From Synergistaceae bacterium (GTDB lineage Bacteria; Synergistota; Synergistia; Synergistales; Aminobacteriaceae), in NCBI GenBank assembly GCA_017443985.1, contig JAFSXR010000030.1, positions 516 through 64,515 on the forward strand: DNA of 64,000 bases. The letters run 5' to 3'. The notes beneath the pieces are model-generated. The model was not told the origin of the DNA. It saw only the letters and a list, made by a program, of their open reading frames with translations, and made no database searches. The first letter of the stretch is position 1. Each line of letters starts with the position of its first letter. Below are positions 8,622 through 62,589 of the stretch, one piece after another. The position numbers and the translations under genes are program-made.

Positions 8622-8655
8622 ATTACTTTGAAAGAAATTGCACGTTAGAAGTATA

Positions 8656-9249: not shown

Positions 9250-9300
9250 GAATTTTTATGAAAATACTGCGGTATTATAGCACCGACGCCTGTTGTCCGT

Positions 9301-26102: not shown

Positions 26103-26175
26103 TAAGAGGTGAAGAGGTAGAAAGTAGGAGGTAGGAAGTAAAACCTCCTAACTCCTGCCTCCTAACTCCTACCTG
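26103..26175. repeat. inverted pair of SD-like heptamer arrays (long imperfect hairpin) between pyk and cdaA
   Basis: TAAGAGGTGAAGAGGTAGAAAGTAGGAGGTAGGAAGT (26103-26139), AAA, then ACCTCCTAACTCCTGCCTCCTAACTCCTACCTG (26143-26175). It starts 1 nt after the pyk stop. Confidence 0.9.
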
Positions 26176-29634: not shown

Positions 29635-29655
29635 GTTAGGAGTCAGGAATTAAGA
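29635..29655 (+). repeat. SD-like heptamer array immediately 5' of the TolC-like start
   Basis: GTTAGGAGTCAGGAATTAAGA, followed by ATG 29656. Confidence 0.75.
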
Positions 29656-30969
29656 ATGAAAAAAATTTTTATAATTTTGTTAATAATATTTTGCTCGTCG
29701 TCCTCGTTTGCCGACGAAAAAATTACAAGCAGCGATATTAGCGGCCTGTCTCTTGAAGAATGTCTGAATATCGCGCTGACAAATCACCCGTCATTGAAAA
29801 AATCAAAGGGCGCGGTTCGTGCCTCCCGTGCTGCTCTTGAGCAGACGAAATCTTCAAACAGGGTTAAAGTTAATTTGACGAGCCGGACAAATTTTGCCGG
29901 AGATTATCAAACTTGGGACAGCCGCTCAGCGTCTCAGATGCTCGGAATAAGCGCGACAAAAACTCTTTATGATACCGGCGTGAACAGATTAAACCGCGAG
30001 ATAAGCATGGAAAGCCTCAGCGGTGTTCTTGAGAGCGAGAGACAAACTCAAATAAACGTCGCCGCCGAAGCAAAAAAAGCATATTACGATTTAGTCCTAA
30101 AAATTCTTAACCGCGACGTTGAACGCGAAAAATTAAAAAATCTTGAGGAACATTTAATCACGGCGAAAGGACTTTATGAGGTCGGCAACAGTCCTTTTAT
30201 TAACGTTACGAAGGCTGAAGCCGACGCTGCGACGGCCCGTGTATCTTTATTGAAAGCCGAGAACGATATTTTAACGTCGCAGGAAAGTTTGAAAGTCGCT
30301 ATGGGCGTGAGCGATTATGAAATTTTAGATTTAATGCTCTCGACAAGTCTGCTCCTGCCGAAATCCGCCGGAGAGATCTCAAAAATTTTAGAGACAGCCA
30401 TGAATGACAGAGCGGACTACAGAAAAATTCTTCATACGTTAAAACAGCGCGAACTTGAAATAAAAGCTGCGGCTCGCGGAAATTCTCCGACAATCACAGG
30501 CTCAATCGGCACTGACTGGGGCAAGAGCGAAGGCTCCCCAACGACTACGGACTATACTGTCGGAGTAAGTGTTAATGTGCCTGTTGAGGACGGCGGTTTG
30601 ACTGCGGCAAAGATCGAAGCAGCCCGGGCGCAGTTAGATCAGGACTTGGCCGATGAAGAAAGCCTGCGCCAGACAATCGCACATGACTTGAGAAGCGCGG
30701 CCTTGACTCTTACTAATGCAATAGAGCGCGCAAAATCTTCGGAGTTAAGCGTTCAATACGCCGAAGAAAATTTAACGCTTGCACGCGGCCGTTACGAAGT
30801 CGGTGTCGGCGACCCTCTCGAAATCAGCGATGCGGTATCGACTCTTGCAAGTTCACGCTATACTTTTTATCAGGCTCTTTATGATGCTCAAATTGCACGG
30901 ACTAATTTAGATCAAGCTATGGGGCATTTACCGGAAGAGTTAGGAGTTAATAATTATGGCAATAATTGA
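29656..30969 (+). CDS. TolC-family outer membrane efflux protein
   Basis: Signal peptide and two OEP repeats (LSLEECLNIALTNHPSLK, coiled-coil-rich segments, ..YEVGVGDPLEISDA..Y.ALYDAQIA). Confidence 0.85.
   Translation: MKKIFIILLIIFCSSSSFADEKITSSDISGLSLEECLNIALTNHPSLKKSKGAVRASRAALEQTKSSNRVKVNLTSRTNFAGDYQTWDSRSASQMLGISATKTLYDTGVNRLNREISMESLSGVLESERQTQINVAAEAKKAYYDLVLKILNRDVEREKLKNLEEHLITAKGLYEVGNSPFINVTKAEADAATARVSLLKAENDILTSQESLKVAMGVSDYEILDLMLSTSLLLPKSAGEISKILETAMNDRADYRKILHTLKQRELEIKAAARGNSPTITGSIGTDWGKSEGSPTTTDYTVGVSVNVPVEDGGLTAAKIEAARAQLDQDLADEESLRQTIAHDLRSAALTLTNAIERAKSSELSVQYAEENLTLARGRYEVGVGDPLEISDAVSTLASSRYTFYQALYDAQIARTNLDQAMGHLPEELGVNNYGNN
30937..30953 (+). repeat. short SD-like heptamer array at the TolC-like 3' end / ATPase RBS
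   Basis: GAGTTAGGAGTTAATAA encodes ..ELGVNN.. and precedes ATG 30956. Confidence 0.6.
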
Positions 30970-31719: not shown

Positions 31720-33672
31720 ATGAGAAAATATTTATTGCTTTTCATATTTTTTATTTTTTCACTCCTATCTCCTGTCTCCTGCTTCCTGTCTGAATTAACT
31801 GCCGCAGAAATTCCGCGCGCAAACCTCGACGAAGCAGAAAGATTTTTTAATAACGCCTACGTTCATTTCATGCGCCGCGATTACAGAGAGGCTCAGCTGT
31901 ATCTCGATCACGCGATAAACGAAAACACATATATGGTAGATTATTATTTGCTTAGCTCGTTAAATCTCAGCCGCATGGGCAACACCGAAGGCGCAATGTC
32001 AGCTATCAAAAGTTATCTCGAAGTCAGACCGATGGACGACTCCGCACCGCGCATAAGAAATTATTTTGAAGAACAGGACAGAGTCTTGAGAGCTGTATTA
32101 GACACCGCGCCTCTCCCCGTCAGCTGGCGTTCGGCAGAGACCACAGTACAGACTGAATGGGATACGGGATATACACGCCCGTTTAGCATAAAGGGGCTTG
32201 GAAAAATCAGCACGCTTGGCGAAATAGTCAGCATACCTGACACATTTGGAGATAAATTATATGTCCGCAACCCTTCTAAAAATTTAGTAGCAGGATCTTT
32301 CGGAATCGGAGGCACAATACGCGAGATCGATGTCCCTTCGCCGGTGATAGCTTTGCCGCTCGGAGATGGAACTTTCAGAGTTTTTACCAGCAACGGAGAT
32401 TTATACATGCTCAAAAATCTTGACGCTGACGCTGACGCAAAATTAACTTCAGCTGATTATTCCGAGTATATTGCGACTTTGCCGTCTATGGTCGTGGCTG
32501 ACGCTGAAATCCTTGCAGAAAATTTTTTTGCCGTCGCGGACCCTGCCGACAGAAATATAGCTTTTTATGTAGTTACGCCCTCAAGGCTCAGTGTAAGGAC
32601 ATGGGAGCCGCCGCTTGGAATCGGCGATTTATTATTCGAGCCCGTTGCTGTTGAGGGCTACGCGGATTGGCTTGCCATTGCCGACAGGGCGAACGACAGA
32701 ATTTATTTATTAAACTCTGTAAGCCATGAATATTTTGACATTCGAGGAGTGTCAAAGCCGCGAGATTTAATCTGGACCTCGTTTGGAAATTTATTTGTCT
32801 TGACGGAAGACGGAGATATTTACGACTTCACGATAGACTTCGGCACGCGCACATATGCGAACAGACATTCAGGCGCGTTATATTCAGGTTTGAAAAATAT
32901 ATGGTCGTTTTTTCATTCTGCTTATGGCGACATAAACTGGATGGACATCGGGGCCTCCAGAATTTTTAAGGCCGTTATGATCCCTTCACGAGAGGACGTG
33001 CCGGGCTTTTTAAGCATTTATAATCCCGTCATGGCAACTAACTTAGAAAATAACGAGAGCTTTATACTCGATGCTACTTTAATAACGCCGTTCGTAAATT
33101 ATTCTCATAACACAAGAATTATAGCTCAATCAGTTTGGAACGAGCGAAATATGCGCTGCAATGTCATGTGGCAGAAGCCGAAAAATTTTGATGCCCTTCT
33201 AATTCACGGGCCTATGCCACGCGGTCAGGCTTTCCCGTTAAACGTCAGACCGGCGCAGGTTACCTCAGGAACTGATATTAATTCGGTCTTATCATCTTTT
33301 TGGCTCCTCCACAAGGACACACTGACAAATATAATCATTGATGCTTCAATACCAATGAGAATAGATGATTTACTGATGCTCTTAAAATTCTGCGTGCTGA
33401 ACGGCCTTGAACTTGATATATATGCGAGAGACGTTCCTTCGCTGTCGCTGAAGCGTGCGAGTGCGTTTACAGGGGGCAGAACGATATATTCAATAGCGAA
33501 TACGATAAGCCTGCCGGTAAAGATGACTCATCTGCAGATTCAAATTCCTCTGCCTCAGGAATTATCTTCGTCAGGTTATCCGGGACGCTCAATGCTTGCC
33601 ATGTTCTTAGATGCCGGTTTAATTCAGTCAAGAGCGTGGATCCCCCTATATCCCGATATGTTTGAACGATAA
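31720..33672 (+). CDS. secreted hypothetical protein (TPR-like N-terminus, beta-rich remainder)
   Basis: Long ORF with a signal peptide (MRKYLLLFIFFIFSLLSPVSC). The helical-repeat-like region FNNAYVHFMRRDYREAQLYLDHAI.. is followed by about 500 aa with no motif I recognise. Confidence 0.6.
   Translation: MRKYLLLFIFFIFSLLSPVSCFLSELTAAEIPRANLDEAERFFNNAYVHFMRRDYREAQLYLDHAINENTYMVDYYLLSSLNLSRMGNTEGAMSAIKSYLEVRPMDDSAPRIRNYFEEQDRVLRAVLDTAPLPVSWRSAETTVQTEWDTGYTRPFSIKGLGKISTLGEIVSIPDTFGDKLYVRNPSKNLVAGSFGIGGTIREIDVPSPVIALPLGDGTFRVFTSNGDLYMLKNLDADADAKLTSADYSEYIATLPSMVVADAEILAENFFAVADPADRNIAFYVVTPSRLSVRTWEPPLGIGDLLFEPVAVEGYADWLAIADRANDRIYLLNSVSHEYFDIRGVSKPRDLIWTSFGNLFVLTEDGDIYDFTIDFGTRTYANRHSGALYSGLKNIWSFFHSAYGDINWMDIGASRIFKAVMIPSREDVPGFLSIYNPVMATNLENNESFILDATLITPFVNYSHNTRIIAQSVWNERNMRCNVMWQKPKNFDALLIHGPMPRGQAFPLNVRPAQVTSGTDINSVLSSFWLLHKDTLTNIIIDASIPMRIDDLLMLLKFCVLNGLELDIYARDVPSLSLKRASAFTGGRTIYSIANTISLPVKMTHLQIQIPLPQELSSSGYPGRSMLAMFLDAGLIQSRAWIPLYPDMFER
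31761..31790 (-). repeat. heptamer array (CTCCTNN orientation) inside the signal-peptide coding region of the 650-aa protein
   Basis: ACTCCTATCTCCTGTCTCCTGCTTCCTGTC encodes ..LLSPVSCFLS... Confidence 0.75.
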
Positions 33673-38728: not shown

Positions 38729-38751
38729 ATAATGTAAACCGTTGAATGAAA

Positions 38752-38788
38752 CCCCTCCTGGAGATTTTAACGGGAGGGAATTTTTTTT
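38752..38788 (+). terminator. possible intra-operon attenuator/terminator between flgK and flgL
   Basis: CCCTCC (38753-38758) pairs with GGAGGG (38773-38778), followed by the T8 run 38781-38788. The stem is short. Confidence 0.4.
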
Positions 38789-38806
38789 AAGGAGAGTATA
38801 TAAATA

Positions 38807-41800
38807 ATGTACAGCCGCCTTACAACAGCAACAATGTACGGAAGTTTAATGAACTCTTTGCAGTCGGCACAGAGAAATATTCAGGACTTACAGCAGCAGA
38901 TAGCTTCCGGAAATAAATATACAAAATTATCTGATAATCCTGCGGCGATATCGCGCTCACAGACAGTGCAGTCGGCCCTCAACGCGAATACCCAGTATCA
39001 GGAAAACACCAGAGACGCTCTGACTATGCTCAGACATGCAAACAGCGCGCTTCAGAATGTTCTTGACGCGGCAAAAACGATAAGAAATTTGATTATAGAG
39101 GCCGGAGACGCTGCGCTTGACTCGAGTCAGTTAAAAGATATTACGGCACAAATAGAAGCCAATAAAAAAATCATGCTTGACAATCTTAATACAAAAGTTG
39201 CAGGGCAATATCTTTTCGGAGGAACAAAAACAGGAACGGTGCCTTTTGTTGAAAAATCTGACGGAAGTATAGAATATCAAGGCTCCGATGAAAGAATTAA
39301 ATATGTATTAAGCGAAAATTTATTAGGGGATATTTCTTTTGCAGGAAGCGATATTATCCCTGAAAATGAAGATACTTATTTTATATGCTCTCACTATGTG
39401 CCGCTGGATTGGAAATGGACAGGACGCGAGGAAAAAGTTCAGATTACTGTCGGGAACCGTACGCTTTCAGTTTTTATCCCTGAGGACTGGAGCGACAACG
39501 ACATCAGCAAGACTAACAAACATACTGATGAATATGTTGACGAGGAAAATATACAGAGCTTGAATTTTTCTGACGCAAACGGTTTCAGAGACCCTAACGA
39601 ACTTTCTGGAATAAGTCTTGAGGATTTAGCAACGATTATTAACAATTCCCTTGAGGAACAGGGCGCGGATATGCTTGTCAATGCTTATATCGAGAGAGAT
39701 TATGACAGCGGAACGCAGCAGCTAATCATAAAATCCAATACCGGCGAAAAAGTCGGCATAACAGGCTGGCCCGACACGGATTATATGCCGATGCCCGCGA
39801 CTATAAAGAGCCTTGATTTAAGCAGTAAAGACTGCGAAGGCTGGAACGATGAAGGATCGACTATTACAATATCCACCCTTGAGGGCAACGTTACGCCGGT
39901 AACGATTGAGATAACTGAAGATGACACGCCGGAAACCCTCGCAGGAAAAATCAACGCTATTGAGGGAATTTATGCACGTCATTCAGCAGACGGCAACAGC
40001 ATCGAGATTTTAGCAGAACGCATAGGCGATATTCCTTCCGATAAACTTGCAATTAACGAGGCTGAAGAAGCTTTGCACTATCCTTCGCTTGTTGTTGCGG
40101 CTGAGGGCGGAGCGTTAAAAATGTTTGGTGAATTTTTGGACGAGAGCGGAGAAGTAGCAAAAAGTTCCGTGATTGTAAAATCTAAAGTCAGGAATACTGA
40201 TCAAAGCCACATAGATATTTTTGACTATCTCGGAATGGAGACGGCGACAAAGAGCCGCGAGTTTTCTCCTGATGAAAAATTAACCGTAGAGGACGGAACA
40301 CAATTACATTGGCGCGTAATAAGCGGAGGCCGGAGCGTTGATATAAAATTAAATTCCGGCGAATACACAATCGATCAACTGGCCGAACGGTTAAAAAACG
40401 CCGGTGCAGGCTGGCTTGAAGTTACAGTAGAGCCCGGCGGCCATGACGTAACAGAATCGACGCTTGAAAATCATTCTGACGATCACGAAGAAGAGACAAA
40501 ACGAATTGTAATGCGCGGCTATAACGGCGAGCAGGTTATATTTTTGGATATGAACGAATATAACTATGCTGACAAGTTAGGCGTATCAACAGCTTTAAGA
40601 ACCGACGCTTACGAAGATTCTTCGGGAACTGGCATGAAATGCGTGAATTTCCCCTCCGCTCCGTGCGTTGATGATAACGTCGGGGTGCCGATGCGCGTAC
40701 AAATGAACTGCGGAATGTATTACGATGTTAATATAAAACGCACCGATGTAGTTGACAGCGCGACAGGCTTTGTCGATAGAGCTTTATTAATGCAGGAAAT
40801 TGTTGACCAAGTAAATGAAATCGAGGGTCATAATATTATGGGATTTGCCCAGCATCTTGACAGCACAGGGCAGGATATAGAGGGCTCGTGCTCTATGTAT
40901 TTCTTATCCGGCGAGGCTTTTACAGTTGTAGATATGCCTTTTGAAGATCCTGAATGGGACGATTATTCCGGCGGTCTTGCCGTCCAGCTCGGCATTCACG
41001 GCGGAGTGTCCTCAAATTTACAGCAGACTCACATAAAAATGCTCGACAATGCGACATTTGCTGAAGCATATAGCAGCGACTCGGATAAATACGGCGATGT
41101 TGAAGCAAACCCTGATAATTTTGACTTTAGGGAAGGAACTATACGCTTTTCAAATTTAGCTCACAGCGTTGAAATTGACGTAAACGCCAATGACACGGTA
41201 AAAGATGTCATGGACAGATTAAGAGTGCAGGCAGGCGACTGGCTCTACGTGAACTATTATGACGCTCACATGGGACAGGACGCAACGCGCAACACCGGCG
41301 ACTATCCTTTAATTGCGATTTCATCAAAAGACGGCTCGGCTGTAAATGTTTTAGATATTAAAGGACACATAGCAGAAGACGCGCTCGGACTTTCAACGGG
41401 TATCCAGAGCAGATTGAATTATGACGGCAAGGGCAGCGGCATCATGGACTTTGAATGGGATGTCAACGACCAGGCATATGACGACGGCGGCTCTGTTGAT
41501 TTTCCTGCTGACGCTCTGAATATTACTGTCGCGGGCTACACACACACGCTTGATTTGACAACCATTCGAGACGTTACAAACGACGACACAATAAAAGCTG
41601 ATGATGTTGCAGAATTTATTAATTCCCGTATGCAGGATTATGACGTTAGAGCAGAAATTAACGCTGATAGCGAACTGATGATTTACTCGCCTCGCGGTTA
41701 TTCTGTTGAAATTTCTTTCCTTGCAAATGTTACGGATAAATTTATCGGCGATGTCAATTCCGGTGCAAGCAGAAACGGCTCTGCTGTGTCGTCAAGTCTG

Positions 41801-42937
41801 GCGCAGACAAGCAAAAAAATTACAACGACACAAACATTCGCTGATATTTACGGCTCTGATTTCAGAGACAGCACTATAAAATTCTCCAGCGCGTCTAACA
41901 GCGTAGAGGTTGACGTTAGCTCAACTGATACTGTTGAAACTCTCATGAACAGAATACAAACGGAAGCAGGGAGCTGGCTGACAGTTAGTTACGACGGCAC
42001 GGGTGATTATCCTGTTATTTCTGTTACCGAAAGCAGCGGCTCTGCTCTCAGCGTCATTGACATGAGGGGACATATTGCTGAGGACGTTCTTGGAATTTCA
42101 ACAGGTATTCAAGGAAGGCTTAACGAGGACGGAACAGGTGACGGCGCGATGGCTCTTGAGTGGGACTTAGAAAATAAATCATTCCCTGCCGAACAAGTCA
42201 ATCTTACTGTCAACGGCGTTACTCACTCTGTGGATTTGACGAAGATCGGCGAGTTTATTACAGATAACGACGTAACGACTGACGATGTTGTAGACTACAT
42301 TAACTATAAAATGCAGGATTACGACATCAGGGCGGCGATCAACGCTGACAAGGAAATAGTAATATATTCGCCCGGCGGTTCATCGGTCAAAGTAAAATTT
42401 CTCGACAACGCTAACAAAGAATTTTTGGGCGAAGATGATTACGTTCTGAGCAGGACGCATTATCGCGGAGGCTATGACCTTGAGGGCAAAGCATATTATG
42501 ACGGCGAAAACGATCCTCGCGGAGTTGACAGCGATAATTTATATTCAAGCGGAATGCACACTCAAAACGCCACAATAAGAAGCGGAGCAAACACCGCGAG
42601 ACAAAACGCCTTCGGAACAATTAATGACGTTATCGCGGCTATTAAATCAGGCAACAGAGACGACCTGCAGAATAAAATGCTCCCCAGAATTGATAGCATG
42701 ATTAACGATATTCTCGCTGTCATGGCTGAGGACGGAGCTTTACAGGCGCGTTATAACTACAACACCGAAAGACTTACGACTGAAAATGCAGTCATGACGG
42801 AAGATTATGACAACCTCATGAAGATTGACCCCGCCGATGCAATTTCGCAGTTAATGATCGCGGACTACATGTATCAGGCAAACTTGGCAGTCATTGCGCG
42901 GTTAATTCAGCCGAGCTTGTTGGATTTTCTTGGATAA
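38807..42937 (+). CDS. flgL: flagellar hook-associated protein 3 FlgL, giant 1376-aa form
   Basis: The N-terminus RLTTATMYGSLMNSLQSAQRNIQDLQQQIASGNKYTKLSDNPAA and the C-terminus DPADAISQLMIADYMYQANLAVIARLIQPSLLDFL are flagellin-superfamily D0/D1 termini typical of FlgL. It follows flgK. Confidence 0.85.
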   Translation: MYSRLTTATMYGSLMNSLQSAQRNIQDLQQQIASGNKYTKLSDNPAAISRSQTVQSALNANTQYQENTRDALTMLRHANSALQNVLDAAKTIRNLIIEAGDAALDSSQLKDITAQIEANKKIMLDNLNTKVAGQYLFGGTKTGTVPFVEKSDGSIEYQGSDERIKYVLSENLLGDISFAGSDIIPENEDTYFICSHYVPLDWKWTGREEKVQITVGNRTLSVFIPEDWSDNDISKTNKHTDEYVDEENIQSLNFSDANGFRDPNELSGISLEDLATIINNSLEEQGADMLVNAYIERDYDSGTQQLIIKSNTGEKVGITGWPDTDYMPMPATIKSLDLSSKDCEGWNDEGSTITISTLEGNVTPVTIEITEDDTPETLAGKINAIEGIYARHSADGNSIEILAERIGDIPSDKLAINEAEEALHYPSLVVAAEGGALKMFGEFLDESGEVAKSSVIVKSKVRNTDQSHIDIFDYLGMETATKSREFSPDEKLTVEDGTQLHWRVISGGRSVDIKLNSGEYTIDQLAERLKNAGAGWLEVTVEPGGHDVTESTLENHSDDHEEETKRIVMRGYNGEQVIFLDMNEYNYADKLGVSTALRTDAYEDSSGTGMKCVNFPSAPCVDDNVGVPMRVQMNCGMYYDVNIKRTDVVDSATGFVDRALLMQEIVDQVNEIEGHNIMGFAQHLDSTGQDIEGSCSMYFLSGEAFTVVDMPFEDPEWDDYSGGLAVQLGIHGGVSSNLQQTHIKMLDNATFAEAYSSDSDKYGDVEANPDNFDFREGTIRFSNLAHSVEIDVNANDTVKDVMDRLRVQAGDWLYVNYYDAHMGQDATRNTGDYPLIAISSKDGSAVNVLDIKGHIAEDALGLSTGIQSRLNYDGKGSGIMDFEWDVNDQAYDDGGSVDFPADALNITVAGYTHTLDLTTIRDVTNDDTIKADDVAEFINSRMQDYDVRAEINADSELMIYSPRGYSVEISFLANVTDKFIGDVNSGASRNGSAVSSSLAQTSKKITTTQTFADIYGSDFRDSTIKFSSASNSVEVDVSSTDTVETLMNRIQTEAGSWLTVSYDGTGDYPVISVTESSGSALSVIDMRGHIAEDVLGISTGIQGRLNEDGTGDGAMALEWDLENKSFPAEQVNLTVNGVTHSVDLTKIGEFITDNDVTTDDVVDYINYKMQDYDIRAAINADKEIVIYSPGGSSVKVKFLDNANKEFLGEDDYVLSRTHYRGGYDLEGKAYYDGENDPRGVDSDNLYSSGMHTQNATIRSGANTARQNAFGTINDVIAAIKSGNRDDLQNKMLPRIDSMINDILAVMAEDGALQARYNYNTERLTTENAVMTEDYDNLMKIDPADAISQLMIADYMYQANLAVIARLIQPSLLDFLG
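41126..42433 (+). repeat. diverged tandem ~200-aa duplication inside flgL
   Basis: FREGTIRFSNLAHSVEIDVNANDTVKDVMDRLRVQAGDWL..IKGHIAEDALGLSTGIQSRLN..MQDYDVRAEINADSELMIYSP (41126-41752) is repeated as FRDSTIKFSSASNSVEVDVSSTDTVETLMNRIQTEAGSWL..MRGHIAEDVLGISTGIQGRLN..MQDYDIRAAINADKEIVIYSP (41861-42433). Confidence 0.85.
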
Positions 42938-42947
42938 TTTTTTTGAT

Positions 42948-42976
42948 GGATTAGGAATTAGGAGTGAGGAGTTAGA
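42948..42976 (+). repeat. SD-like heptamer array after the flgL stop, forming the left arm of its terminator
   Basis: GGATTAGGAATTAGGAGTGAGGAGTTAGA. Confidence 0.85.
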
Positions 42977-42996
42977 AACCTTGCTCCTAATTTTTT
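42958..42996 (+). terminator. rho-independent terminator after flgL (in the convergent gap with valS)
   Basis: TTAGGAGTGAG (42958-42968) pairs with CTTGCTCCTAA (42980-42990) over 11 bp including 2 G-U pairs, followed by T6 at 42991-42996. The right arm plus T-run is identical to the one at 13930-13948. Confidence 0.55.
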
Positions 42997-46990: not shown

Positions 46991-47000
46991 AAAAAAAATT

Positions 47001-47150
47001 CATGGGAGCTTGTTAAACAGGCTGAGAGGGAATTAAATTCCGACCATCATAACCTGATCCGGGCAATGCCGGCGTAGGAAGTCAAAATATTTTCGCCTTC
47101 AGTCTAAATTTTTACAGCCCCATGAAAAATTTTAGAAGTCTGGAGGAAAT
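47001..47150 (+). promoter_or_regulatory. TPP (THI-box) riboswitch with expression platform
   Basis: Conserved aptamer elements GGGAGC..GGCTGAGAGGGA..CCGACC..AACCTGATCCGGGCAATGCCGGCGTAGGAAG span 47004-47081. Downstream, CCTTCAG (47095-47101) can pair with CTGGAGG (47140-47146), which covers the thiM SD. Confidence 0.85.
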
Positions 47151-47155
47151 TTATT

Positions 47156-47977
47156 TTGTTAGGAAAATATCTTGAGAACGTCCGAAAAAAATCACCTTTA
47201 ATTCACAACATCACGAATTACGTTACAGTCAACGATGTCGCTAACGTCCTTTTGGCCTGCGGAGCGAGTCCGATAATGGCAGACGAGCCCGACGACGCTG
47301 TAGAGATCACAGCAATTTGCAACGGCCTCAATATTAACATCGGCACCCTTAACTCACGAACGATTGAAAGCATGTTCAAAGCCGGGAAAAAAGCCCGTGA
47401 GCTTGGCCATGTTCTTTTGCTTGACCCGGTCGGAGCGGGCGCGAGCAGTTTACGAACTGACACGGCAGTTAATTTAATCAAAGAAATAAAATTTGATGTC
47501 ATTCGCGGCAACGCTTCAGAGATTAAAACCCTCGTGCTCGGTTCGGGAACTACTCACGGGGTTGACGCTGACAAGGCCGACGCGGTGAGCGATGAAAATC
47601 TTTCTTTCATGATTGATTTTGTTAAAGACTTTGCAAAAAATTCAGGCTCTATAATCGCTTTAACGGGCGCGGTTGATTTAGTTGCCGATGCTGAAAAATG
47701 CTTCGTGATCCGCAACGGACGGCCCGAAATGGGACGTATTACAGGCACGGGCTGCCAGCTTTCAGGAATTATGACGGCGTTTATCGCGGCAAATCCCGAA
47801 AATAAATTAGAAGCTGCTGCTGCGGCTGTGTGCTTAATGGGGCTTGCCGGAGAAATTGCTTTCAAAAATTTACAGCCCGGCGAAGGAAATTCAACCTACA
47901 GAAACAAAATCATTGACGCGGTTTATAACATGACGGGCGAAATTCTTGACGAGGGCGCGAAATATGAAGTCAGGTAG
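47156..47977 (+). CDS. thiM: hydroxyethylthiazole kinase
   Basis: PLIHNITNYVTVNDVANVLLACGASPIMA, VLLDPVGAGAS and GTGCQLSG are ThiM motifs. TTG start with SD GGAGGA at 47142-47147. Confidence 0.9.
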   Translation: MLGKYLENVRKKSPLIHNITNYVTVNDVANVLLACGASPIMADEPDDAVEITAICNGLNINIGTLNSRTIESMFKAGKKARELGHVLLLDPVGAGASSLRTDTAVNLIKEIKFDVIRGNASEIKTLVLGSGTTHGVDADKADAVSDENLSFMIDFVKDFAKNSGSIIALTGAVDLVADAEKCFVIRNGRPEMGRITGTGCQLSGIMTAFIAANPENKLEAAAAAVCLMGLAGEIAFKNLQPGEGNSTYRNKIIDAVYNMTGEILDEGAKYEVR

Positions 47978-48003
47978 GAATTAGGAGTTAGGAGGTAGGA
48001 GGT
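47972..48003 (+). repeat. tandem 7-nt SD-like repeat array spanning the thiM stop and the thiE RBS
   Basis: AGGTAGGAATTAGGAGTTAGGAGGTAGGAGGT. The thiM TAG (47975-47977) lies inside unit 1. The thiE ATG at 48005 follows directly. Confidence 0.9.
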
Positions 48004-48004
48004 T

Positions 48005-48643
48005 ATGAGATTAAATAAAAAAGATTTAATTCTTTACGCCGTAACTGATAGAACTTGGCTGAACGGAAGAAAATTATACGGCGACGTTGAGAAAGCTATA
48101 CGGGGCGGTGCGACGTTAATTCAACTGCGCGAAAAAAATTTAACTCACGAAGAATTTAAGGCCGAAGCCCTAGAAATTCAACAGCTCTGCAAAAAATACA
48201 GCGTACCTTTTATCATTAATGACGATGTTGAATTAGCGCACGAAATTGACGCTGACGGAGTTCACGTGGGTCAAGACGACATGGAAGCCGGGAACGTAAG
48301 AAATTTAATCGGCAGTGAAAAAATTTTGGGCGTTTCCGTTCAAACTCCTGAGCAGGCAGTCTTAGCCGAGAGCAAGGGCGCGGATTATTTAGGGGCAGGC
48401 GCGGTCTTTCACACTAACTCTAAACTTGACGCGGCTGACGTTTCTCACGAGGTGCTGAAAAAAATCTGTGAGGCTGTAAAAATTCCCGTTGTCGCTATCG
48501 GCGGAATAAACGCGAAAAATATTAATCAGCTCGCAGGGACAGGAATTGCCGGAGTCGCTATAATAAGCGCGATATTCGCCGCTGATGATATAGAAAAATC
48601 AGCGCGTGAATTAAGAAACTTATCTGGAGACTTGGGGCAATAA
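48005..48643 (+). CDS. thiE: thiamine-phosphate synthase
   Basis: LYAVTDR, IQLREK, INDDVELA, DGVHVGQDD and PVVAIGGI are the canonical ThiE (TMP-TENI) motifs. Confidence 0.9.
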   Translation: MRLNKKDLILYAVTDRTWLNGRKLYGDVEKAIRGGATLIQLREKNLTHEEFKAEALEIQQLCKKYSVPFIINDDVELAHEIDADGVHVGQDDMEAGNVRNLIGSEKILGVSVQTPEQAVLAESKGADYLGAGAVFHTNSKLDAADVSHEVLKKICEAVKIPVVAIGGINAKNINQLAGTGIAGVAIISAIFAADDIEKSARELRNLSGDLGQ

Positions 48644-48646
48644 AAA

Positions 48647-49276
48647 TTGAACAATTTATTAGCAATTATTTTTGACGCTGACGGGACAATTTTAGACTCG
48701 ATGTATATTTGGCACGAGCTTGGCGGAAGATACCTGCGGAGCATTGACGTTGAGCCGGAAAGAAATTTAGCCGAAATTCTTTATCCTTTGAGTCTTGAAC
48801 AGGGCTGTGTGTATCTCAAAGAAAGATACGCGCTTGAGCAGACTCTGCCGGAAATCCGGGAAGGCATCGTGAGAATTATTCAGGATTTTTATATTGATGA
48901 GGTCGGTTTGAAGGCAGGCGTAAGAGATTTTCTTCAGTCAATGCTTGAAAAAAATATCCCGATGGTCATTGCAACATCGGGCGACAGAACTTTATTAAAC
49001 GCTGCTCTCGAACGCAACGGCATCGCAGGATATTTCAACGCTATTTTCACTTGCTCGGAACTTGAAACTAACAAGCATGAGCCGAAAATTTATCTCGAGT
49101 GCGCAAAATTTTTCGGTCTTGAGCCGTATAACATTGCCGTCTTTGAGGACAGCTTATTCGCGCTTGAGACAGCGAAGGCCGCAGGCTTTATCACGTTCGG
49201 CGTTGAAGATGATTCTAATATTAACGACCGCGAAAGAATTATTGAAGTCGCGGATTTTTACACGGACTTTTGTTAA
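48647..49276 (+). CDS. HAD-superfamily (subfamily IA) hydrolase/phosphatase
   Basis: Motif I IIFDADGTILDS, motif II VIATSG, then K and the acidic motif IAVFEDSLFALETAKAAG. TTG start. Confidence 0.8.
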   Translation: MNNLLAIIFDADGTILDSMYIWHELGGRYLRSIDVEPERNLAEILYPLSLEQGCVYLKERYALEQTLPEIREGIVRIIQDFYIDEVGLKAGVRDFLQSMLEKNIPMVIATSGDRTLLNAALERNGIAGYFNAIFTCSELETNKHEPKIYLECAKFFGLEPYNIAVFEDSLFALETAKAAGFITFGVEDDSNINDRERIIEVADFYTDFC

Positions 49277-49293
49277 AGGATATCATCGTGTAA

Positions 49294-49325
49294 AATAATA
49301 ATATAAGTGTGTTTATATTATTATT
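49294..49325. repeat. perfect AT-only inverted repeat (13-bp arms, 6-nt loop)
   Basis: AATAATAATATAA (49294-49306), loop GTGTGT, then TTATATTATTATT (49313-49325). It sits at the upstream edge of the AT-rich insertion. Confidence 0.9.
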
Positions 49326-49375
49326 CACTTAAATATTAGATGATAATGGCGTCTCAAAAAAATTAGGAGTTTTTT

Positions 49376-51097
49376 ATGTTTATAATATGGTTTAACATAA
49401 TTTCTATATTGTGTGTGATAATATTTTTCGGGGTAGTTATATTTGGACCAGAAGAAATATTTTACAGTAAATATTTTTACCTGTGGCGTAGAGTTCATAT
49501 AAAATGGCGCAGCAGATTTGATTATTGGCTGTATATGTTTATGTGTTCAATAAGAACTTCCCCAATTACTAAAATTCCTGAAAGGATTTACTCCTTATGG
49601 TATCTATATAAAAATTTATTGTTTTTGTTCCCTTTAATTCCTATCATGATAAAAATGAAAGATTTTGCTTCTGGAATTTTAGCTGCTTCCATTTTTTTCT
49701 TTTGTGTAGATGTCTATAGAAATAATAGAACAGAAAAATTAAATGAGCAATATATAGAAATTCAACCTAATTATGAGGCGTATGAAAATATAACGGTTGA
49801 CGATAATAATTGTTTATTTGAATTTCAATCAAATGGAACTAAAGAAAGTGTATGTATTAACTTAAAAGTAAATGAATGGTTATTAAGTGAACAAAAAATT
49901 GGCTTACGGCGCTGTAAGAAGTACGAAAAAGGGCTAAAATCACAGATTTATAATGAACATAATTGGGGAAATATATATTCACTGTTTCTGCGTAATAACT
50001 ATCTTAAATCTGTCCATTTTGGTTATCAATTTCTTAATGGAAGTAAATTTGGTATTTCAAGTGAACTTAACCCTAATAATGATTTTGTTAAAATTCATAA
50101 AACATGCTATTTTGATTCTTATCTTACGAACATTATACCTGGTAAGACTCTCTTAAAATTGGTTGACGGTAAGGTTATATCAAATACAGAAAAGTTTATG
50201 CCTTATGGTCAAGATCGTATATTATTGAGTTGTGATGATGATATTTTAAGAAATATATATAGAGCTAATGAACCCGGCGTTTCAGTACTTTTAATGTTAC
50301 CTAATAATCGTATTTTATTTTGGAGACAAAACAATTTTGTGCTAAGTAGTGCTAACAAAATTGCTCCAAGTGGAAGCGGAAGTGTTGATTGGAATGATTG
50401 TAAGAGTTTTTTGAGTGCTCCTGACGGCTTTCGTAAGGCTATTATACATGCTATGGAGAGAGAATTATGGGAAGAAGCTTATTCCAGCGAAGGTAAAATT
50501 AGCTTGGAAGATTTTATGAACAATACAGAGACTAATATTATAGGACATTTTCGTTGGTTACAGAAATCCGGAAAATATGAATTTGTAGGTGTAACTAAGT
50601 TTTTGCAAAAATTACCCGGTTGTAATGCTCCTAAACCGTGCAATATGGAAATTATTGATGGTGATTTATCTCCCCAAATACTAACCGTAGGAGAAGCTTT
50701 GCAAACGCTATTTATTTCTAACAATATGTCTATTAATAAAGAAAAAAGTACTGTGTCTAATCGTCTTCCCAGTTTTAGAGGAATTATTGAAAAAACTTCA
50801 GAACTTCCTATAATAAGTAATGATGGAGAAGTAAAAGTTACAAAGGAAACAATAAACATCAAGGAAATAGAAGTGAAAAACATTAACGATGCTGTAAAAC
50901 TTTTTGAACATCGTACTATGAATAGCATTATTGAAATAAACGATTATTCTATTCCTTGTGTTATGGCTATTTTATATCTTCGACAAATTTGTGAAGATTA
51001 TTGTGAGAAATGCTCAAATAAAAGTTGTTGTAAGGAAGATAACATACCTTGTAATGTAAAACTAGAAGAGGCAATTTTCAACAAGAGGAATTTTTGA
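49376..51097 (+). CDS. AT-rich orphan: membrane-anchored protein with degenerate Nudix-like box and Cys-rich C-terminus
   Basis: 573-aa ORF with SD AGGAG at 49365-49369. The N-terminal ~115 aa contains 3-4 hydrophobic helices. A Nudix-like region (VSVLLMLPNNRILFWRQ..GSGSVDW..FRKAIIHAMERELWEEAYS) retains REUxEE. The tail is CEDYCEKCSNKSCCKEDNIPC. Its DNA composition is unlike its neighbours. Confidence 0.75.
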   Translation: MFIIWFNIISILCVIIFFGVVIFGPEEIFYSKYFYLWRRVHIKWRSRFDYWLYMFMCSIRTSPITKIPERIYSLWYLYKNLLFLFPLIPIMIKMKDFASGILAASIFFFCVDVYRNNRTEKLNEQYIEIQPNYEAYENITVDDNNCLFEFQSNGTKESVCINLKVNEWLLSEQKIGLRRCKKYEKGLKSQIYNEHNWGNIYSLFLRNNYLKSVHFGYQFLNGSKFGISSELNPNNDFVKIHKTCYFDSYLTNIIPGKTLLKLVDGKVISNTEKFMPYGQDRILLSCDDDILRNIYRANEPGVSVLLMLPNNRILFWRQNNFVLSSANKIAPSGSGSVDWNDCKSFLSAPDGFRKAIIHAMERELWEEAYSSEGKISLEDFMNNTETNIIGHFRWLQKSGKYEFVGVTKFLQKLPGCNAPKPCNMEIIDGDLSPQILTVGEALQTLFISNNMSINKEKSTVSNRLPSFRGIIEKTSELPIISNDGEVKVTKETINIKEIEVKNINDAVKLFEHRTMNSIIEINDYSIPCVMAILYLRQICEDYCEKCSNKSCCKEDNIPCNVKLEEAIFNKRNF

Positions 51098-51100
51098 AGC

Positions 51101-51910
51101 ATGAAAAAAATTTTTGCCGTATTAATAATTTTATTTTTATTTTTTAGCGTTAGTGCCGCGCCGGTTTATTCTGCTGAAAAAAATGAGAAGAGCGAAATAA
51201 CTTCAGCTAAAGAGCTTTATCGCGATCTCAAAAAAAATTTCAGCAAGGACAGAGCCTACTATAAAAATCTCAGCGACGAAGGTTTTGCAAATTTCCGCGA
51301 GGTCAGCACGACAGGAATCGGCAGGGGAATTTTGTATCGTTCGTCATCGCCAATAAACGACTGGGGCAATAGAAACATAACGGCTGATAATCTTTCGCGC
51401 CGGGCAAAAATAAAAACTTTTGTAAATCTCGTGGACGATTATAAAAAAATGACAGGCTACAAAAATTTTTCACGGACTTATTACAGCACGCAGAAAGCAA
51501 TCGCGCTAAATTTTGACTTAAAATTTATGTCCAAAGATTTTCAGAATAAACTTGCAAGAGCCGTAAAATTTATCGCTGACAGCGAACCGCCATTTTTAAT
51601 CCACTGCAACTTGGGCAAGGACAGGACGGGGCTGGTCTGCGCTGTGATCGAGGCCGTAACGGGCGCGTCTTCCGAAGAAATCGCAGAAGATTTTATGAAA
51701 TCTTTTTATAATTATTTCAGCGTCATGCCCGGCTCAAAAGAATATGAATTTATTGTCAGTCATGAGATACGCTCTTTTCTTGCGTCAATGCTTGGCGTAA
51801 AAAATATTGACGACGTAAATTTATACGCGGCCGCTGAAAAATATTTGTTAAAAATCGGAGTTGCTTCAGAAGATATTGAGAAAGTCCGCAAAAAACTTGG
51901 AGGAAAATAA
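51101..51910 (+). CDS. secreted tyrosine-phosphatase-like protein (CX5R, Y_phosphatase3-like)
   Basis: Signal peptide MKKIFAVLIILFLFFSVSAAPVYSA and the active-site loop HCNLGKDRTG (C-x5-R-T). Confidence 0.7.
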   Translation: MKKIFAVLIILFLFFSVSAAPVYSAEKNEKSEITSAKELYRDLKKNFSKDRAYYKNLSDEGFANFREVSTTGIGRGILYRSSSPINDWGNRNITADNLSRRAKIKTFVNLVDDYKKMTGYKNFSRTYYSTQKAIALNFDLKFMSKDFQNKLARAVKFIADSEPPFLIHCNLGKDRTGLVCAVIEAVTGASSEEIAEDFMKSFYNYFSVMPGSKEYEFIVSHEIRSFLASMLGVKNIDDVNLYAAAEKYLLKIGVASEDIEKVRKKLGGK

Positions 51911-51914
51911 ATTT

Positions 51915-52724
51915 ATGAAAACAGCTTTGACAATCGCAGGGAGCGATTCATCGGGCGGCGCAGGTATTCAGGCCGACATAAAAACAATGACTATGAACGG
52001 CGTTTATGCAATGAGCGCGATAACAGCTCTGACTGCACAAAATACTACGGGCGTTACAGGAATTTTGGAATCATCGCCGGAATTTTTGAGAGCCCAGCTT
52101 GACGCGGTATTCACTGATATTTTTCCGGACGCTGTGAAAATCGGCATGGTCTCAAGTTCGGAATTAATAAAAATTATTGCCGGAGCATTAAAATTTTACA
52201 AAGCAAAAAATATTGTCGTTGATCCCGTAATGGTATCGACGAGCGGAGCAAGATTAATAAATGAAAATGCCGTAGCAACTTTAACGGAAGAACTTTTGCC
52301 GCTTGCTCTCGTTGTTACGCCGAATATTCCCGAAGCTGAAATTCTATCGGGCATTAAAATTGATAATCAAGACGATATGCCCAACGCCGCGAAGATAATA
52401 AGTGAAAAATACGGCTGCTCTGTTTTATTAAAGGGCGGTCATGACGTGAACGACGCGAACGATTTATTATTCATGGGCGAAAATAATTTCAAATGGTTTT
52501 ATGGAAAAAGGATTGACACGCGCAACACTCACGGCACGGGCTGCACGCTCTCAAGCGCGATTGCCGCGAATTTAGCAAAAAATTTTTCGCTCGAAATTTC
52601 CGTTGAACGCGCAAAAGAATATATTTCGGGAGCGTTGGGAGCAATGCTGGACTTAGGCAAGGGCTGCGGACCGATGGCTCACTCGTTTAATTTAACGGGA
52701 AAGTTTGCAGAACATGGAAAATAA
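51915..52724 (+). CDS. thiD: hydroxymethylpyrimidine/phosphomethylpyrimidine kinase
   Basis: TIAGSDSSGGAGIQADIKT, KIGM, VVDPVM and THGTGCTLSSAIAA are ThiD motifs. I chose ATG 51915, after the upstream stop at 51910, rather than the ORF-track start at 51861. Confidence 0.9.
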   Translation: MKTALTIAGSDSSGGAGIQADIKTMTMNGVYAMSAITALTAQNTTGVTGILESSPEFLRAQLDAVFTDIFPDAVKIGMVSSSELIKIIAGALKFYKAKNIVVDPVMVSTSGARLINENAVATLTEELLPLALVVTPNIPEAEILSGIKIDNQDDMPNAAKIISEKYGCSVLLKGGHDVNDANDLLFMGENNFKWFYGKRIDTRNTHGTGCTLSSAIAANLAKNFSLEISVERAKEYISGALGAMLDLGKGCGPMAHSFNLTGKFAEHGK

Positions 52725-53355
52725 CTCCTGCCTAAAAAATCGCTGCGTGATAGTCGGCGGAGCTGAAATAAAAAATTATGACCTCATAAAAAAATATTTC
52801 AGCCCCGAAGATTTTTTTATTTACTGCGACTGCGGATTAAAACACGAAAAAAATTTTGGGATTAAACCTGATTTAATAATCGGCGATTTTGACTCGCACG
52901 ACATGCCCCAAGATTTAAGCAACGTTATAATTTTGCCCGTTATAAAAGACGACACGGACACTATTTTTGCAGTGAAAGAAGCAATGAAGCGCGGCTTTGA
53001 TGATTTCATTTTAACCGGCGTTACGGGCGGACGGCAGGATCATAATTTAGGAAACATTTACGCGCTTTTAATGCTCGCCGAAAAAAATAAAAACGCGCTG
53101 ATAGTTGACGATTACTCCGAGATAAAATTAATAAAAGCAAACGAAAAAATAAAAATTAAACGGGGCTGGAAATTTTTTTCGCTGATTAATATTTCCGGCA
53201 CTGCGAAGGGAATTTTTATAACGGGCGCGAAATATAATTTAGAGAACGCTGAAATCACGCCCGACTTTCAATACGGAATAAGCAACGAAATTTTAGATGA
53301 TTACGCCGAAATTTTTTTGAGCGAAGGCAGTCTGTTATTAATCTGCGTCAGGTGA
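52705..53355 (+). CDS. thiN: thiamine pyrophosphokinase
   Basis: CVIVGGAE, PDLIIGDFDS, KDDTD and GGRQDHNLGN are TPK catalytic motifs, followed by a C-terminal thiamin-binding domain. The start is 52705 or 52714. Confidence 0.85.
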   Translation: MQNMENNSCLKNRCVIVGGAEIKNYDLIKKYFSPEDFFIYCDCGLKHEKNFGIKPDLIIGDFDSHDMPQDLSNVIILPVIKDDTDTIFAVKEAMKRGFDDFILTGVTGGRQDHNLGNIYALLMLAEKNKNALIVDDYSEIKLIKANEKIKIKRGWKFFSLINISGTAKGIFITGAKYNLENAEITPDFQYGISNEILDDYAEIFLSEGSLLLICVR

Positions 53356-55860: not shown

Positions 55861-55884
55861 AACTCCTACCTCCTAACTCCTAAT
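55861..55884 (-). repeat. SD-like heptamer array just 3' of cbiG, in a convergent gap
   Basis: The plus strand reads AACTCCTACCTCCTAACTCCTAAT. No start codon lies downstream in either orientation. Confidence 0.85.
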
Positions 55885-60447: not shown

Positions 60448-61089
60448 TTACACCTCCTGCCTGTCGGCAGACACGGCGCAAAATTCACGCAAAATATTTA
60501 AGCCGACGTTGCCGCTTTTCTCCGGGTGGAATTGAACGCCGTAAATATTTTTGTTCTGCACCGAAGCAGTTAAATCAGCTCCGTAATTTGTCGTTGCCGT
60601 TATAAATTTTTCGTCGCAGAAGGCAGCGTATGAATGAACAAAATAAACATATTCGCCGTTATTTTTAATTATCGACTGACCTCCTACCTCCTCACTCCTA
60701 CCTCCTACCTGTAAAGCGTTCCAGCCTATTTGAGGAATTTTTAAGCCCTCCGGGATAACTTCGCCGATGTAGCGCACAGTGCCGGGAATTAAATTTAATC
60801 CTTCATGCTCGCCAAATTCGTAGCTCTTTGTGAAAAGCATCTGCATTCCTAAACAAATTCCTAATAACGGCTTGCCTCTTTTAACTTCGTCAAGCAGAGT
60901 TTCAACAAGTCCCGAAGATTTTAATTTTTTTGCCGCGTCCTCAAATGCTCCGACACCTGGCAAAATTATTCGTTCTGATTTTTTCAAGTCTTCGGGGTCT
61001 GACGTTACTTTCACATTTTTTCCAATGGCGTTGAAAGAACTTTCAAGCGAAAATAAATTTCCTACGCCGTAATTTATTATTGCAATCAT
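60448..61089 (-). CDS. hisH: imidazole glycerol phosphate synthase glutaminase subunit HisH
   Basis: ILPGVGAF, GICLGMQ (nucleophile Cys), IGWN, YFVHSY and GVQFHPEKS. The gene contains a heptamer-repeat-derived segment at 60678-60711. Confidence 0.9.
   Translation of the reverse strand: MIAIINYGVGNLFSLESSFNAIGKNVKVTSDPEDLKKSERIILPGVGAFEDAAKKLKSSGLVETLLDEVKRGKPLLGICLGMQMLFTKSYEFGEHEGLNLIPGTVRYIGEVIPEGLKIPQIGWNALQVGGRSEEVGGQSIIKNNGEYVYFVHSYAAFCDEKFITATTNYGADLTASVQNKNIYGVQFHPEKSGNVGLNILREFCAVSADRQEV
60678..60711 (-). repeat. SD-like heptamer array inside hisH (sense orientation, in frame)
   Basis: The minus strand reads CAGGTAGGAGGTAGGAGTGAGGAGGTAGGAGGTC, encoding QVGGRSEEVGGQ between the conserved GWN and YFVHSY motifs. 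Confidence 0.9.
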
Positions 61090-61095
61090 ACTTTC

Positions 61096-61130
61096 TTAAC
61101 TCCTACCTCCTAACTCCTAATTCCTACCTG
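61096..61130 (-). repeat. tandem 7-nt SD-like repeat array immediately 5' of hisH
   Basis: The minus strand reads CAGGTAGGAATTAGGAGTTAGGAGGTAGGAGTTAA and ends 6 nt before the hisH ATG (61089). Confidence 0.9.
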
Positions 61131-62529: not shown

Positions 62530-62589
62530 TTATATTTTTTGTGCCGTTGTGAAATTCCTAACTCCTCATTAAAAAAGGAGGCAAAATTT

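Follow-up and report, generated by a model that had tools for sequence, protein, structure and literature searches.

Knowledge of dispersed heptamer repeats in bacteria dates back to about 1990. Heptameric repeats are over-represented in bacteria generally according to a 2007 report, as that work is cited in PMC4692102 and PMC4679880, and the former account also traces short tandemly repeated repetitive (STRR) heptamers of cyanobacteria to Calothrix PCC 7601. The G-rich heptamers GGGAATC and GGGGAYT of Xanthomonas and Nostoc occur as inverted pairs and vary between close relatives (Rehm 2015, PMC4692102). The TAACTGA repeats of marine Beggiatoaceae, found also in some Cyanobacteria and Bacteroidetes, are grouped two to six at a time (2-6 copies) at many intergenic loci and for the most part immediately precede start codons in forward orientation; they contain stops in forward orientation, are translatable in reverse with some reversed copies inside open reading frames (ORFs), tend to break contigs, and show a patchy cross-phylum spread with no known transfer mechanism (MacGregor 2015, PMC4679880). 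A link between CspB and heptamers has been proposed for them (PMC4679880), and no mechanism for the origin of heptamer repeats is evident in either account (PMC4679880, PMC4692102). Here we analyze a 64-kb stretch of DNA, referred to as the window, from an uncultured gut or digester Synergistaceae bacterium, in which short tandem arrays of the heptamer TAGGAG(G/T), each unit containing a stop codon and a Shine-Dalgarno (SD) core, are scattered over 13-15 loci. We consider it likely that these arrays are a clade-restricted, dispersed and unstable repeat family that selection has filtered and in places co-opted as stop-plus-SD cassettes, and their properties match the dispersed-heptamer class of the STRR, Xanthomonas GGGAATC and Beggiatoa TAACTGA repeats.

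The abundance of this single heptamer in the window is striking. Allowing at most one mismatch, TAGGAGNTAGGAG matched 28 times on the two strands, whereas 100 dinucleotide-preserving shuffles of the window gave an expectation of 0.09 and a maximum of 2, which rules out chance or low complexity as the origin of the arrays and bears out the proposal of the first-pass annotation that a dispersed family with an SD core in every unit is present. A unit-by-unit scan recovered 13 arrays of at least two units, and Tandem Repeats Finder (TRF) reported period-7 arrays of 3.3-5.1 copies with 78-87% matches at 11 loci (Table 1). All 14 loci listed earlier exist; those at 13911, 29635 and 30937 are degenerate, with only one or two good units, and those at 10628, 31762 and 60681 had not been recognized as lying inside coding sequences. 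TRF detected no second amplified heptamer in the window besides trivial AT-rich 2-copy runs, and general heptamer slippage is thus unsupported. TAGGAGT and TAGGAGG often alternate, giving a 14-nt super-period or dimer, and many arrays open after CAGG (5/13 window arrays and two arrays in the loci L044 and L089 of Sheep_2_mag_86) and decay at their 3′ side into TAAGAA- or TAGAAA-like units. As in STRR-type repeats, the 7-nt units stand head to tail in tandem, are dispersed over unlinked loci and are mainly intergenic: 12 of 15 arrays fall within the mere 4.6% of this compact window that is non-coding (p ~4e-14).

We compared these features with those of other repeat classes. The units abut directly, as opposed to the 23-50-nt repeats with unique spacers of a clustered regularly interspaced short palindromic repeat (CRISPR) array. 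There are no terminal inverted repeats and no fixed consensus such as a miniature inverted-repeat transposable element (MITE) or a repetitive extragenic palindromic (REP)-type element would have; the arrays are purely tandem, with decaying 3′ units and flanks that are unconserved beyond the CAGG 5′ boundary, and the unconserved flanks likewise led us to reject a larger enclosing mobile element. No known RNA family or tRNA-derived element was found for the arrays; with Rfam 15 at the gathering score nothing matched over them, the sole match in the window being a thiamine pyrophosphate (TPP) riboswitch at 46992-47097. In the literature we found no description of TAGGAG(G/T) arrays, of tandem or multiple SD repeats, or of heptamers in Synergistetes. 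The earlier remark that no family with such properties had been described nevertheless does not hold, dispersed unstable heptamers being already on record (PMC4679880, PMC4692102).

The clearest view of how an array came to its site is offered by the junction of thiM and thiE. The first TAG of this array (47975-47977) is the stop codon of thiM, and the ATG of thiE (48005) lies 3 nt past the last TAGGAG, or 2 nt past AGGAGG. Array-free relatives, namely L133 and L134 (ThiE 91% identical to that of the window) and L135 and L136 (79%), have a 14-nt overlap of the two genes, reading ...GCAAAATATGAAATTAAATAA and also given as ...AAATATGAAATTAAATAA. Alignment of filled and empty sites defines a 41-nt insert consisting of GTCAGG, four units, TT and a second ATGA(G), which is carried by the window, by L131 and L132 (both with ThiE 98% identical) and by L235-L237 (92%). 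Its borders are TATGA(A)/TATGA(G), a 5-6-nt duplication seen in this single filled/empty pair, and both proteins retain their usual lengths in the presence of the insert (273 and 212 aa). The array has swapped the thiM/thiE overlap for a stop-SD-start arrangement. It did not create the tight juxtaposition of the two genes, since they overlapped before the insertion, and the ancestral overlap probably already coupled them. The TPP riboswitch (RF00059, + strand, 68.1 bits versus a gathering score of 54.3) lies upstream of thiM, which places the array inside a riboswitch-controlled operon; the whole thiM-thiE-HAD-...-thiD-TPK cluster is probably one thiamine operon. The presence/absence polymorphism at orthologous loci that the first-pass annotation proposed to look for is found at this site, and unit counts vary elsewhere.

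The 41-nt insert is identical at 41/41 positions between the window and L235/L236, while identity at third codon positions of the adjacent thiE falls to 74%; against L131, the array differs at 5-6 of 36 nt although thiE is 97% identical. The thiM of the window (47156-47977) is about equally distant from those of L131 (92.6%) and L235 (91.9%), whereas its thiE (48005-48643) is nearer to that of L131 (97.3%) than to that of L235 (87.5%), and from these unequal affinities a recombination breakpoint seems to lie at or near the array. Across the relatives, array haplotypes do not track the phylogeny of their flanks. Identical unit orders of 27-31 nt also recur at unlinked loci (47971-48001 with 61130-61100, joining the thiM/thiE array to the one upstream of hisH, and 11899-11873 with 26171-26145, joining the FecE-type ATPase array to one at pyk/cdaA; shuffle test, p ~0.035). 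Together, the shared unit orders and the haplotypes suggest that arrays exchange sequence, that pre-formed arrays are copied and/or that selection acts on some of them.

These observations bear on how arrays spread, and one candidate route is a minimal mobile or templated insertion, in which pre-formed arrays with a defined 5′ end (YCAGG followed by TAGGAG...) would be copied enzymatically or through template switching, leaving a brief duplication of the target. This proposal is compatible with co-option, as it concerns only the means of spread, and we regard it as unlikely. The duplication flanking the thiM/thiE insert is what such a process would leave, but it comes from a single filled/empty site and could be a survivorship artefact, because the duplication was needed to keep both genes intact. 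The common CAGG 5′ boundary agrees with copying of a pre-formed block, yet nothing is conserved beyond the units, terminal inverted repeats are missing, and the window encodes no candidate transposase or reverse transcriptase. The shared unit orders likewise favor copying but can also arise by convergence, because the unit alphabet is small. The departure of haplotypes from flank phylogeny and the reach of the heptamer across phyla and IMG/VR contigs, described below, also speak for it.

Within Synergistaceae, the arrays are restricted to a sub-clade. The window lies on the 79.6-kb ENA metagenome contig ERZ27256806 k141_67992. Its ValRS is up to 98% identical to proteins of metagenome-assembled genomes (MAGs) and 65% identical to that of Aminobacterium, placing the host in uncultured Synergistaceae. 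Arrays are borne by the window, L131, L132, L123, L137, L235-L237 and the two Sheep_2_mag_86 loci, array-bearing relatives having ThiE 92-98% or ValRS 94-98% identical to the window's. About 150 kb of other relatives (ThiE 79-91%, ValRS 88-92%, histidinol phosphatase 64-72% identical) hold no arrays or few 2-unit matches: arrays are absent from L124-L130 and L133-L136, and L138 has 2-unit matches only. Unit number also differs between close relatives. L131 is ~94.6% identical to the window over 20 kb, and its array at the end of cbiG has four units where that of the window has three; the array in the valS gap similarly has 3 units versus 4 and differs in sequence as well. Whole-segment alignments of the window with L131 revealed no further empty sites, only the one-unit cbiG-end difference and an unrelated 14-nt indel.

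The recurrence of arrays in four independent assemblies, drawn from Logan, ENA and NCBI, excludes an assembly artefact and disposes of the possibility, raised by the first-pass annotation, that independent assemblies would lack them. The Logan assembly of SRR12529381 contains the thiM/thiE array, within which its contig begins; two NCBI MAGs (GCA_034185565.1, GCA_018396375.1) and three ENA assemblies contain it as well. Arrays do, in turn, break assemblies.

We then considered what the arrays contribute to translation. Read as mRNA, every unit holds a UAG stop and an AGGAG(G) core, and three intact sense units stop all three frames because TAG recurs every 7 nt. Two arrays supply the stop codon of the upstream gene, thiM (TAG, unit 1) and the lpxL-like acyltransferase (TAA, unit 3, 14850-14852), and stop-to-next-start distances at array junctions are 9-27 nt. 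This part of an earlier claim about the two junctions stands; the accompanying claim that the arrays newly set up translational coupling is not supported, given the pre-existing thiM/thiE overlap. In ordinary genes of the window, one AGGAGG or CAGGAG core begins 12-18 nt ahead of the start codon. Because the core recurs every 7 nt, an array ending a few nucleotides before a start always offers one at a working spacing, and cores start 11-18 nt upstream of thiE, hisH, ruvX, the TolC-like gene and the MacB ATPase gene, as in array-free genes. For thiE, hisH and ruvX the array gives the only core at the genome-typical distance, the array upstream of hisH being the sole SD-like sequence ahead of that gene. 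AGGAGG(T) matches the canonical anti-SD, the consensus used here, as the organism's own 16S rRNA lies outside the window. From these sequence features, the arrays very probably act as working SDs for thiE, hisH and ruvX.

The positions of intergenic arrays are biased toward start codons. Relative to a null in which intergenic placement is given and strand is random, 6/12 intergenic arrays have their 3′ ends at most 40 nt upstream of a same-strand start (17% expected, p ~0.009) and 5/12 at most 16 nt upstream (8% expected, p ~0.002), in agreement with the earlier observation that arrays tend to sit just 5′ of starts. The range then given, 0-36 nt, fits thiE (3 nt), ruvX (6 nt), hisH (10 nt) and patatin (16 nt), and is exceeded at the FecE-type ATPase (37 nt) and cdaA (46 nt). 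At the TolC-like and MacB ATPase genes degenerate units reach the start codon, and the run before the latter may be nothing beyond an ordinary SD. The cores are off working distance at patatin, the FecE-type ATPase, cdaA, and in arrays within genes and convergent gaps. A strand bias was not robust with a sample of this size: sense and antisense operon contexts numbered 3 and 3 under a crude open-frame heuristic applied to the Synergistaceae set with in-gene arrays included. A cross-phylum excess of upstream ORFs ending at the array is partly built in, because sense arrays hold TAG in all frames.

The first-pass annotation had read the arrays as a multi-SD landing pad and translational-coupling device; on such a reading they would be selected because tandem SDs recruit or hold the 30S subunit before starts. 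The positional bias, the sole cores ahead of three genes and the 9-27-nt stop-to-start distances, which from general knowledge of coupling suit termination-reinitiation, all fit this idea, as does the perfect conservation of the thiM/thiE array relative to L235 despite 26% third-position divergence. About half of the arrays, however, cannot serve a start: in-frame positions within genes account for three of the window's arrays and for at least four of those in relatives, with five of the seven or more antisense, while others follow genes in convergent gaps or lie 37-46 nt away from a start. The genes thiM and thiE were tightly juxtaposed before the insertion, and close relatives run the same genes array-free. 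The heptamer also forms arrays in Bacteroidota, many further phyla and long non-coding Nostocales tracts. A dedicated landing pad, with SD function as the reason for the arrays' existence, is therefore unlikely; the idea is partly right on the consequence of the arrays and probably wrong on their cause.

Another class of function would not require initiation at the array. The units could serve as clustered targets of a factor that binds RNA or DNA, either CsrA-type, recognizing GGA, or cold-shock-type, each monomer then occupying one heptamer, or they could stabilize mRNA 5′ ends as the STAB-SD of Bacillus thuringiensis cry transcripts does, which retains a 30S subunit but does not initiate. 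Flagellar regulons frequently go together with CsrA/FliW systems, and the window contains the flagellar regulon genes FlgM, FlgN, FlgK and FlgL. Each unit carries A(G)GGA, the array of the FecE-type ATPase, 37 nt upstream, is too far from its start for an SD role in initiation, and the CspB-heptamer proposal for TAACTGA provides a precedent (PMC4679880). Arrays that are antisense or in frame inside genes nonetheless suit a leader-specific regulator poorly, and no CsrA, FliW or alternative factor turned up, no search having been aimed at them. We retain this explanation as a candidate only, and a very unlikely one.

The arrays inside coding sequences are informative about what the genome tolerates. 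Among ~25 Synergistaceae arrays, at least seven lie in frame inside genes, five of these antisense. The array within hisH leaves its frame open, unit 3 having lost the frame-closing TAG through a T>G change (GAGGAG), and alignment with the array-free L130 orthologue places the array in a variable loop of an otherwise well-conserved protein. The array in the periplasmic binding-protein gene is translated in frame as TSYFLPPNSYFLT, also in a variable loop by alignment with its L130 orthologue. Among relatives, in-frame arrays occur at the N-terminus of thiamine pyrophosphokinase (TPK) in L131 and L235, at two sites in one L044 protein and in MetRS of L138. The TPK of L131 and L235 has four units where that of the window has one, so that the proteins read MKELKITSYLLTPNSCLKN versus MENNSCLKN. 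At the neighboring gene, L131 and L235 have a ThiD of 490 aa with a fused TenA domain, whereas ThiD of the window, at 269 aa, lacks that domain; the breakpoint between the two forms falls at the TPK N-terminal array (window 51915-52733; L131 12105-13626; L235 7200-8721).

A unit whose length is not a multiple of three, that varies in copy number between strains and that sometimes lies inside genes could in principle create phase-variable contingency loci, gain or loss of 7 nt switching genes by frameshift or by altered SD spacing. The genes concerned are housekeeping ones (thiE, hisH, ruvX and the valS neighborhood) as opposed to surface or restriction genes, the TPK difference of 1 versus 4 units amounts to 21 nt and stays in frame, and we saw no frameshifted alleles. 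SD-to-start spacing would not respond either, because the core recurs every 7 nt and unit changes leave it unaltered. Phase variation is accordingly an extremely unlikely purpose of the arrays.

Arrays also pair with inverted copies of the unit. The composite after dctM, whose stem is a unit and its inverted copy, folds at -14.9 kcal/mol (z -4.5). In the valS gap, the composite follows the FlgL-like gene in a convergent gap with valS and folds at -22 kcal/mol (z -4.1), folds at this gap being -22 and -26.4 kcal/mol; in the orthologous arrays of L123 and L131 unit number and sequence differ while the stem is kept. Both composites end in a U-run and are predicted to be terminators. The inverted pair at pyk/cdaA forms a strong predicted hairpin (-29.7 kcal/mol, z -4.5) but is without a 3′ U-run on either strand and therefore no canonical terminator, so that the terminator role once assigned to three such sites would apply to two. 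The cbiG-end array has no predicted hairpin (z -0.6) despite its U-run.

To place the heptamer in a broader context, we considered matches outside Synergistaceae, where taxon spread refers to a sample of the matches listed and not to a census. Three exact units occur at 120 or more loci in species-representative genomes; among the matches listed Nostocales predominate, and Bacteroidota, Planctomycetota, Acidobacteriota, Firmicutes, Neisseriaceae and more are represented, along with many ruminant-gut MAGs. The seventh base is nearly always T among these listed matches, giving (TAGGAGT)n. CAGG followed by three units is found in 36 metagenome contigs spanning 37-70% GC, and three units in 60 IMG/VR contigs. 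Nostocales arrays lie in long non-coding tracts, with up to 37 units among the cyanobacterial loci compared. SD-led initiation is, to our knowledge, largely absent from Bacteroidota, and the arrays found there imply that their existence is independent of SD function. The ruminant gastrointestinal MAGs among the matches listed belong to Selenomonadaceae, Bacteroidaceae, Prevotella, Paludibacteraceae, Neisseriaceae and Thermoguttaceae, a prevalence that may reflect database composition. One contig classed as viral (L184, IMG/VR UViG_3300037843_000663; 14.2 kb, 65% GC) holds 16 TAGGAGN arrays, each 3-13 units long; most are paired in inverted orientation and form long hairpins between genes.

These results can be combined into a scheme in which the SD and terminator uses would be a co-option of the repeat family and not the cause of its existence. 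Arrays would enter new sites as pre-formed blocks, as at thiM/thiE with its 5-6-nt flanking duplication, and thereafter gain or lose units, as between the window and its relatives, and possibly exchange sequence with one another. Selection would then keep sense arrays at operon junctions and in 5′ leaders, where they end the upstream ORF and very probably supply its SD to the next gene; arrays beside an inverted copy downstream of genes, where they would form terminator hairpins; and, within genes, only those arrays whose frame stays open and that lie in variable loops or at N-termini. A bolder version would make the arrays a minimal cassette of a few tandem heptamers that is actively propagating, has a fixed 5′ boundary, makes a short target duplication, is tolerated in operons through its own stop and ribosome-binding site, and has spread or arisen repeatedly across phyla and viral contigs, notably among ruminant-gut MAGs. 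We judge this clearly unlikely; if it were true, the combination of a three-frame stop with a ribosome-binding site would let arrays land between or within operon genes without killing expression.

Several points weigh against the co-option scheme. The 41/41 identity of the thiM/thiE insert points to purifying selection or recent exchange and exceeds the constraint expected of a merely tolerated repeat. Insertion was seen in one filled/empty pair only, whose duplication may reflect survivorship and not the signature of an insertion mechanism. The positional statistics rest on a small sample of 12-25 arrays and a 64-kb window, general polymerase slippage fails to explain why one heptamer alone was amplified there, and the SD and terminator roles are read from sequence.

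The family has three features beyond those of the described ones. Its unit is readable as a stop codon plus an SD, which makes predictions about translation concrete; thiM/thiE is a clean natural before/after pair inside a TPP-riboswitch operon; and in-frame arrays are tolerated in housekeeping enzymes. The before/after pair, the in-frame arrays and the recurrence of one heptamer across many phyla make the old niche question of how heptamer families are made and maintained more testable. On the practical side, arrays break short-read assemblies and can mislead gene callers based on start codons and SDs in Synergistaceae MAGs.

Table 1 TAGGAG(G/T) arrays and related features of the window.
Feature	Position	Strand	TRF period-7 start	Composition and context
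thiM/thiE junction array (the site first reported)	47972..48003	+	47972	AGG + TAGGAAT TAGGAGT TAGGAGG TAGGAGG + TT
hisH upstream array	61097..61126	-	61097	four units, sense to hisH; ends 10 nt before ATG 61089
lpxL-like/ruvX junction array	14833..14859	+	14833	three units; ruvX ATG 14862
Patatin array	15993..16005	+		two units, 16 nt upstream of start 16022
FecE-type ABC ATPase/dctQ divergent-gap array	11871..11902	-	11871	four units; ATPase start 11835, 37 nt off
MacB permease/TolC-like gap	29635..29655	+		degenerate TAGGAGT CAGGAAT TAAGAAT; permease stop 29632, TolC-like start 29656
Weak degenerate run	30937..30955	+		AAGAGT TAGGAGT TAATAAT, in TolC-like 3′ end; ABC (MacB) ATPase start 30956
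cbiG-end array	55861..55883	-	55861	three units, 1 nt past cbiG stop, then T8
Weak two-unit array	62555..62567	-		antisense in 5′ leader; the gene's own AGGAGG SD lies downstream
hisH internal array	60679..60710	-	60679	four units, sense, translated QVGGRSEEVGGQ
Binding-protein internal array	10628..10663	+	10628	five units, antisense in periplasmic binding-protein gene 10250-11086 (minus)
Signal-peptide array	31762..31791	-	31762	antisense in 650-aa ORF 31720-33672, translated SLLSPVSCFLS
TPK solo unit	52723..52733	-		AACTCCTGCCT on + strand, N-terminal codons of thiamine pyrophosphokinase
Composite after dctM	13909..13946	+		GCAGGAGTGAGAAAA / TTTTTTCTTGCTCCTAA predicted hairpin + T-run; stem of unit + inverted copy
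valS-gap composite	42952..42996	+	42950	three units + inverted CTCCTAA (42984-42990) + T-run
pyk/cdaA inverted array pair	26103..26175	+ 26114-26140, - 26143-26175	26117, 26145	long predicted hairpin

Several genes in the window and its relatives have features of their own. The lpxL-like acyltransferase ORF (14160-14852) begins at position 83/295 of its Pfam profile. Its frame is open back to 13941 (+) with a plausible N-terminus that contains no ATG, GTG or TTG, and GGGAGG at 13954-13959, followed 8 nt on by in-frame ATT ATT (13968-13973), suggests a non-canonical AUU start. The flagellar hook-associated proteins (34553-42937, +) are unusually large, at 1391 aa for the FlgK-like and 1376 aa for the flagellin_N/FlgL-like protein; their counterparts in L137 (ValRS 94% identical; 8615-15835) measure 1042 aa and 672 + 504 aa, a 23S_rRNA_IVP-family gene lying between them. 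In the same relative, a 358-nt valS leader (5497-5854) includes AATCACCTCCTTTCA, a sequence similar to the 3′ end of 16S rRNA; the window has just 14 nt between the beta-eliminating lyase gene and valS. A stretch of low GC content (48000-52000; 36% versus ~44% elsewhere) contains a 573-aa ORF (49376-51097, +), which has no Pfam match, is absent from the 94.6%-identical L131, and is preceded by a single TTAGGAGTT unit as its SD.

Compared with known systems, the arrays share with REP elements, REP doublets (REPINs) and MITEs their short length, dispersal, mostly intergenic placement, some hairpins after genes and a possible target duplication at one site; unlike these, they are purely tandem, lack a consensus fixed over the full length and show no terminal inverted repeats inside a single array, and no REP-associated tyrosine transposase (RAYT) or other transposase was seen beside arrays in the window. 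Where they serve genes, they resemble ordinary SDs and termination-reinitiation sites in presenting AGGAG(G) at the genome-typical distance, with a stop 9-27 nt before the next start in a polycistronic setting. An ordinary SD, though, is a single copy evolving in place, whereas here the SD comes within a repeated, unstable block that also occurs where no start follows.

The strongest parallels are with other heptamers. With the STRR, Xanthomonas and Nostoc repeats, the arrays have in common tandem 7-nt units that are dispersed and intergenic, a lineage-specific unit, inverted pairs able to form stem-loops, and extensive variation in length and sequence at shared intergenic sites among close relatives. 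Those units are not SD-like, and the G-rich ones have been studied as G-quadruplex formers; cyanobacterial arrays are also often far longer and lie in long non-coding tracts, whereas the Synergistaceae arrays have 2-5 units in a compact genome. The closest likeness is to the TAACTGA repeats of Beggiatoaceae, which also consist of a single heptamer placed upstream of starts, with stops in forward orientation, reversed copies in ORFs, contig breaks and a cross-phylum spread. TAACTGA, however, has almost no SD character, most genes behind it being without an obvious SD, while the TAGGAG(G/T) unit is a near-perfect SD; and here the host belongs to Synergistota and a filled/empty pair shows insertion between two overlapping genes.

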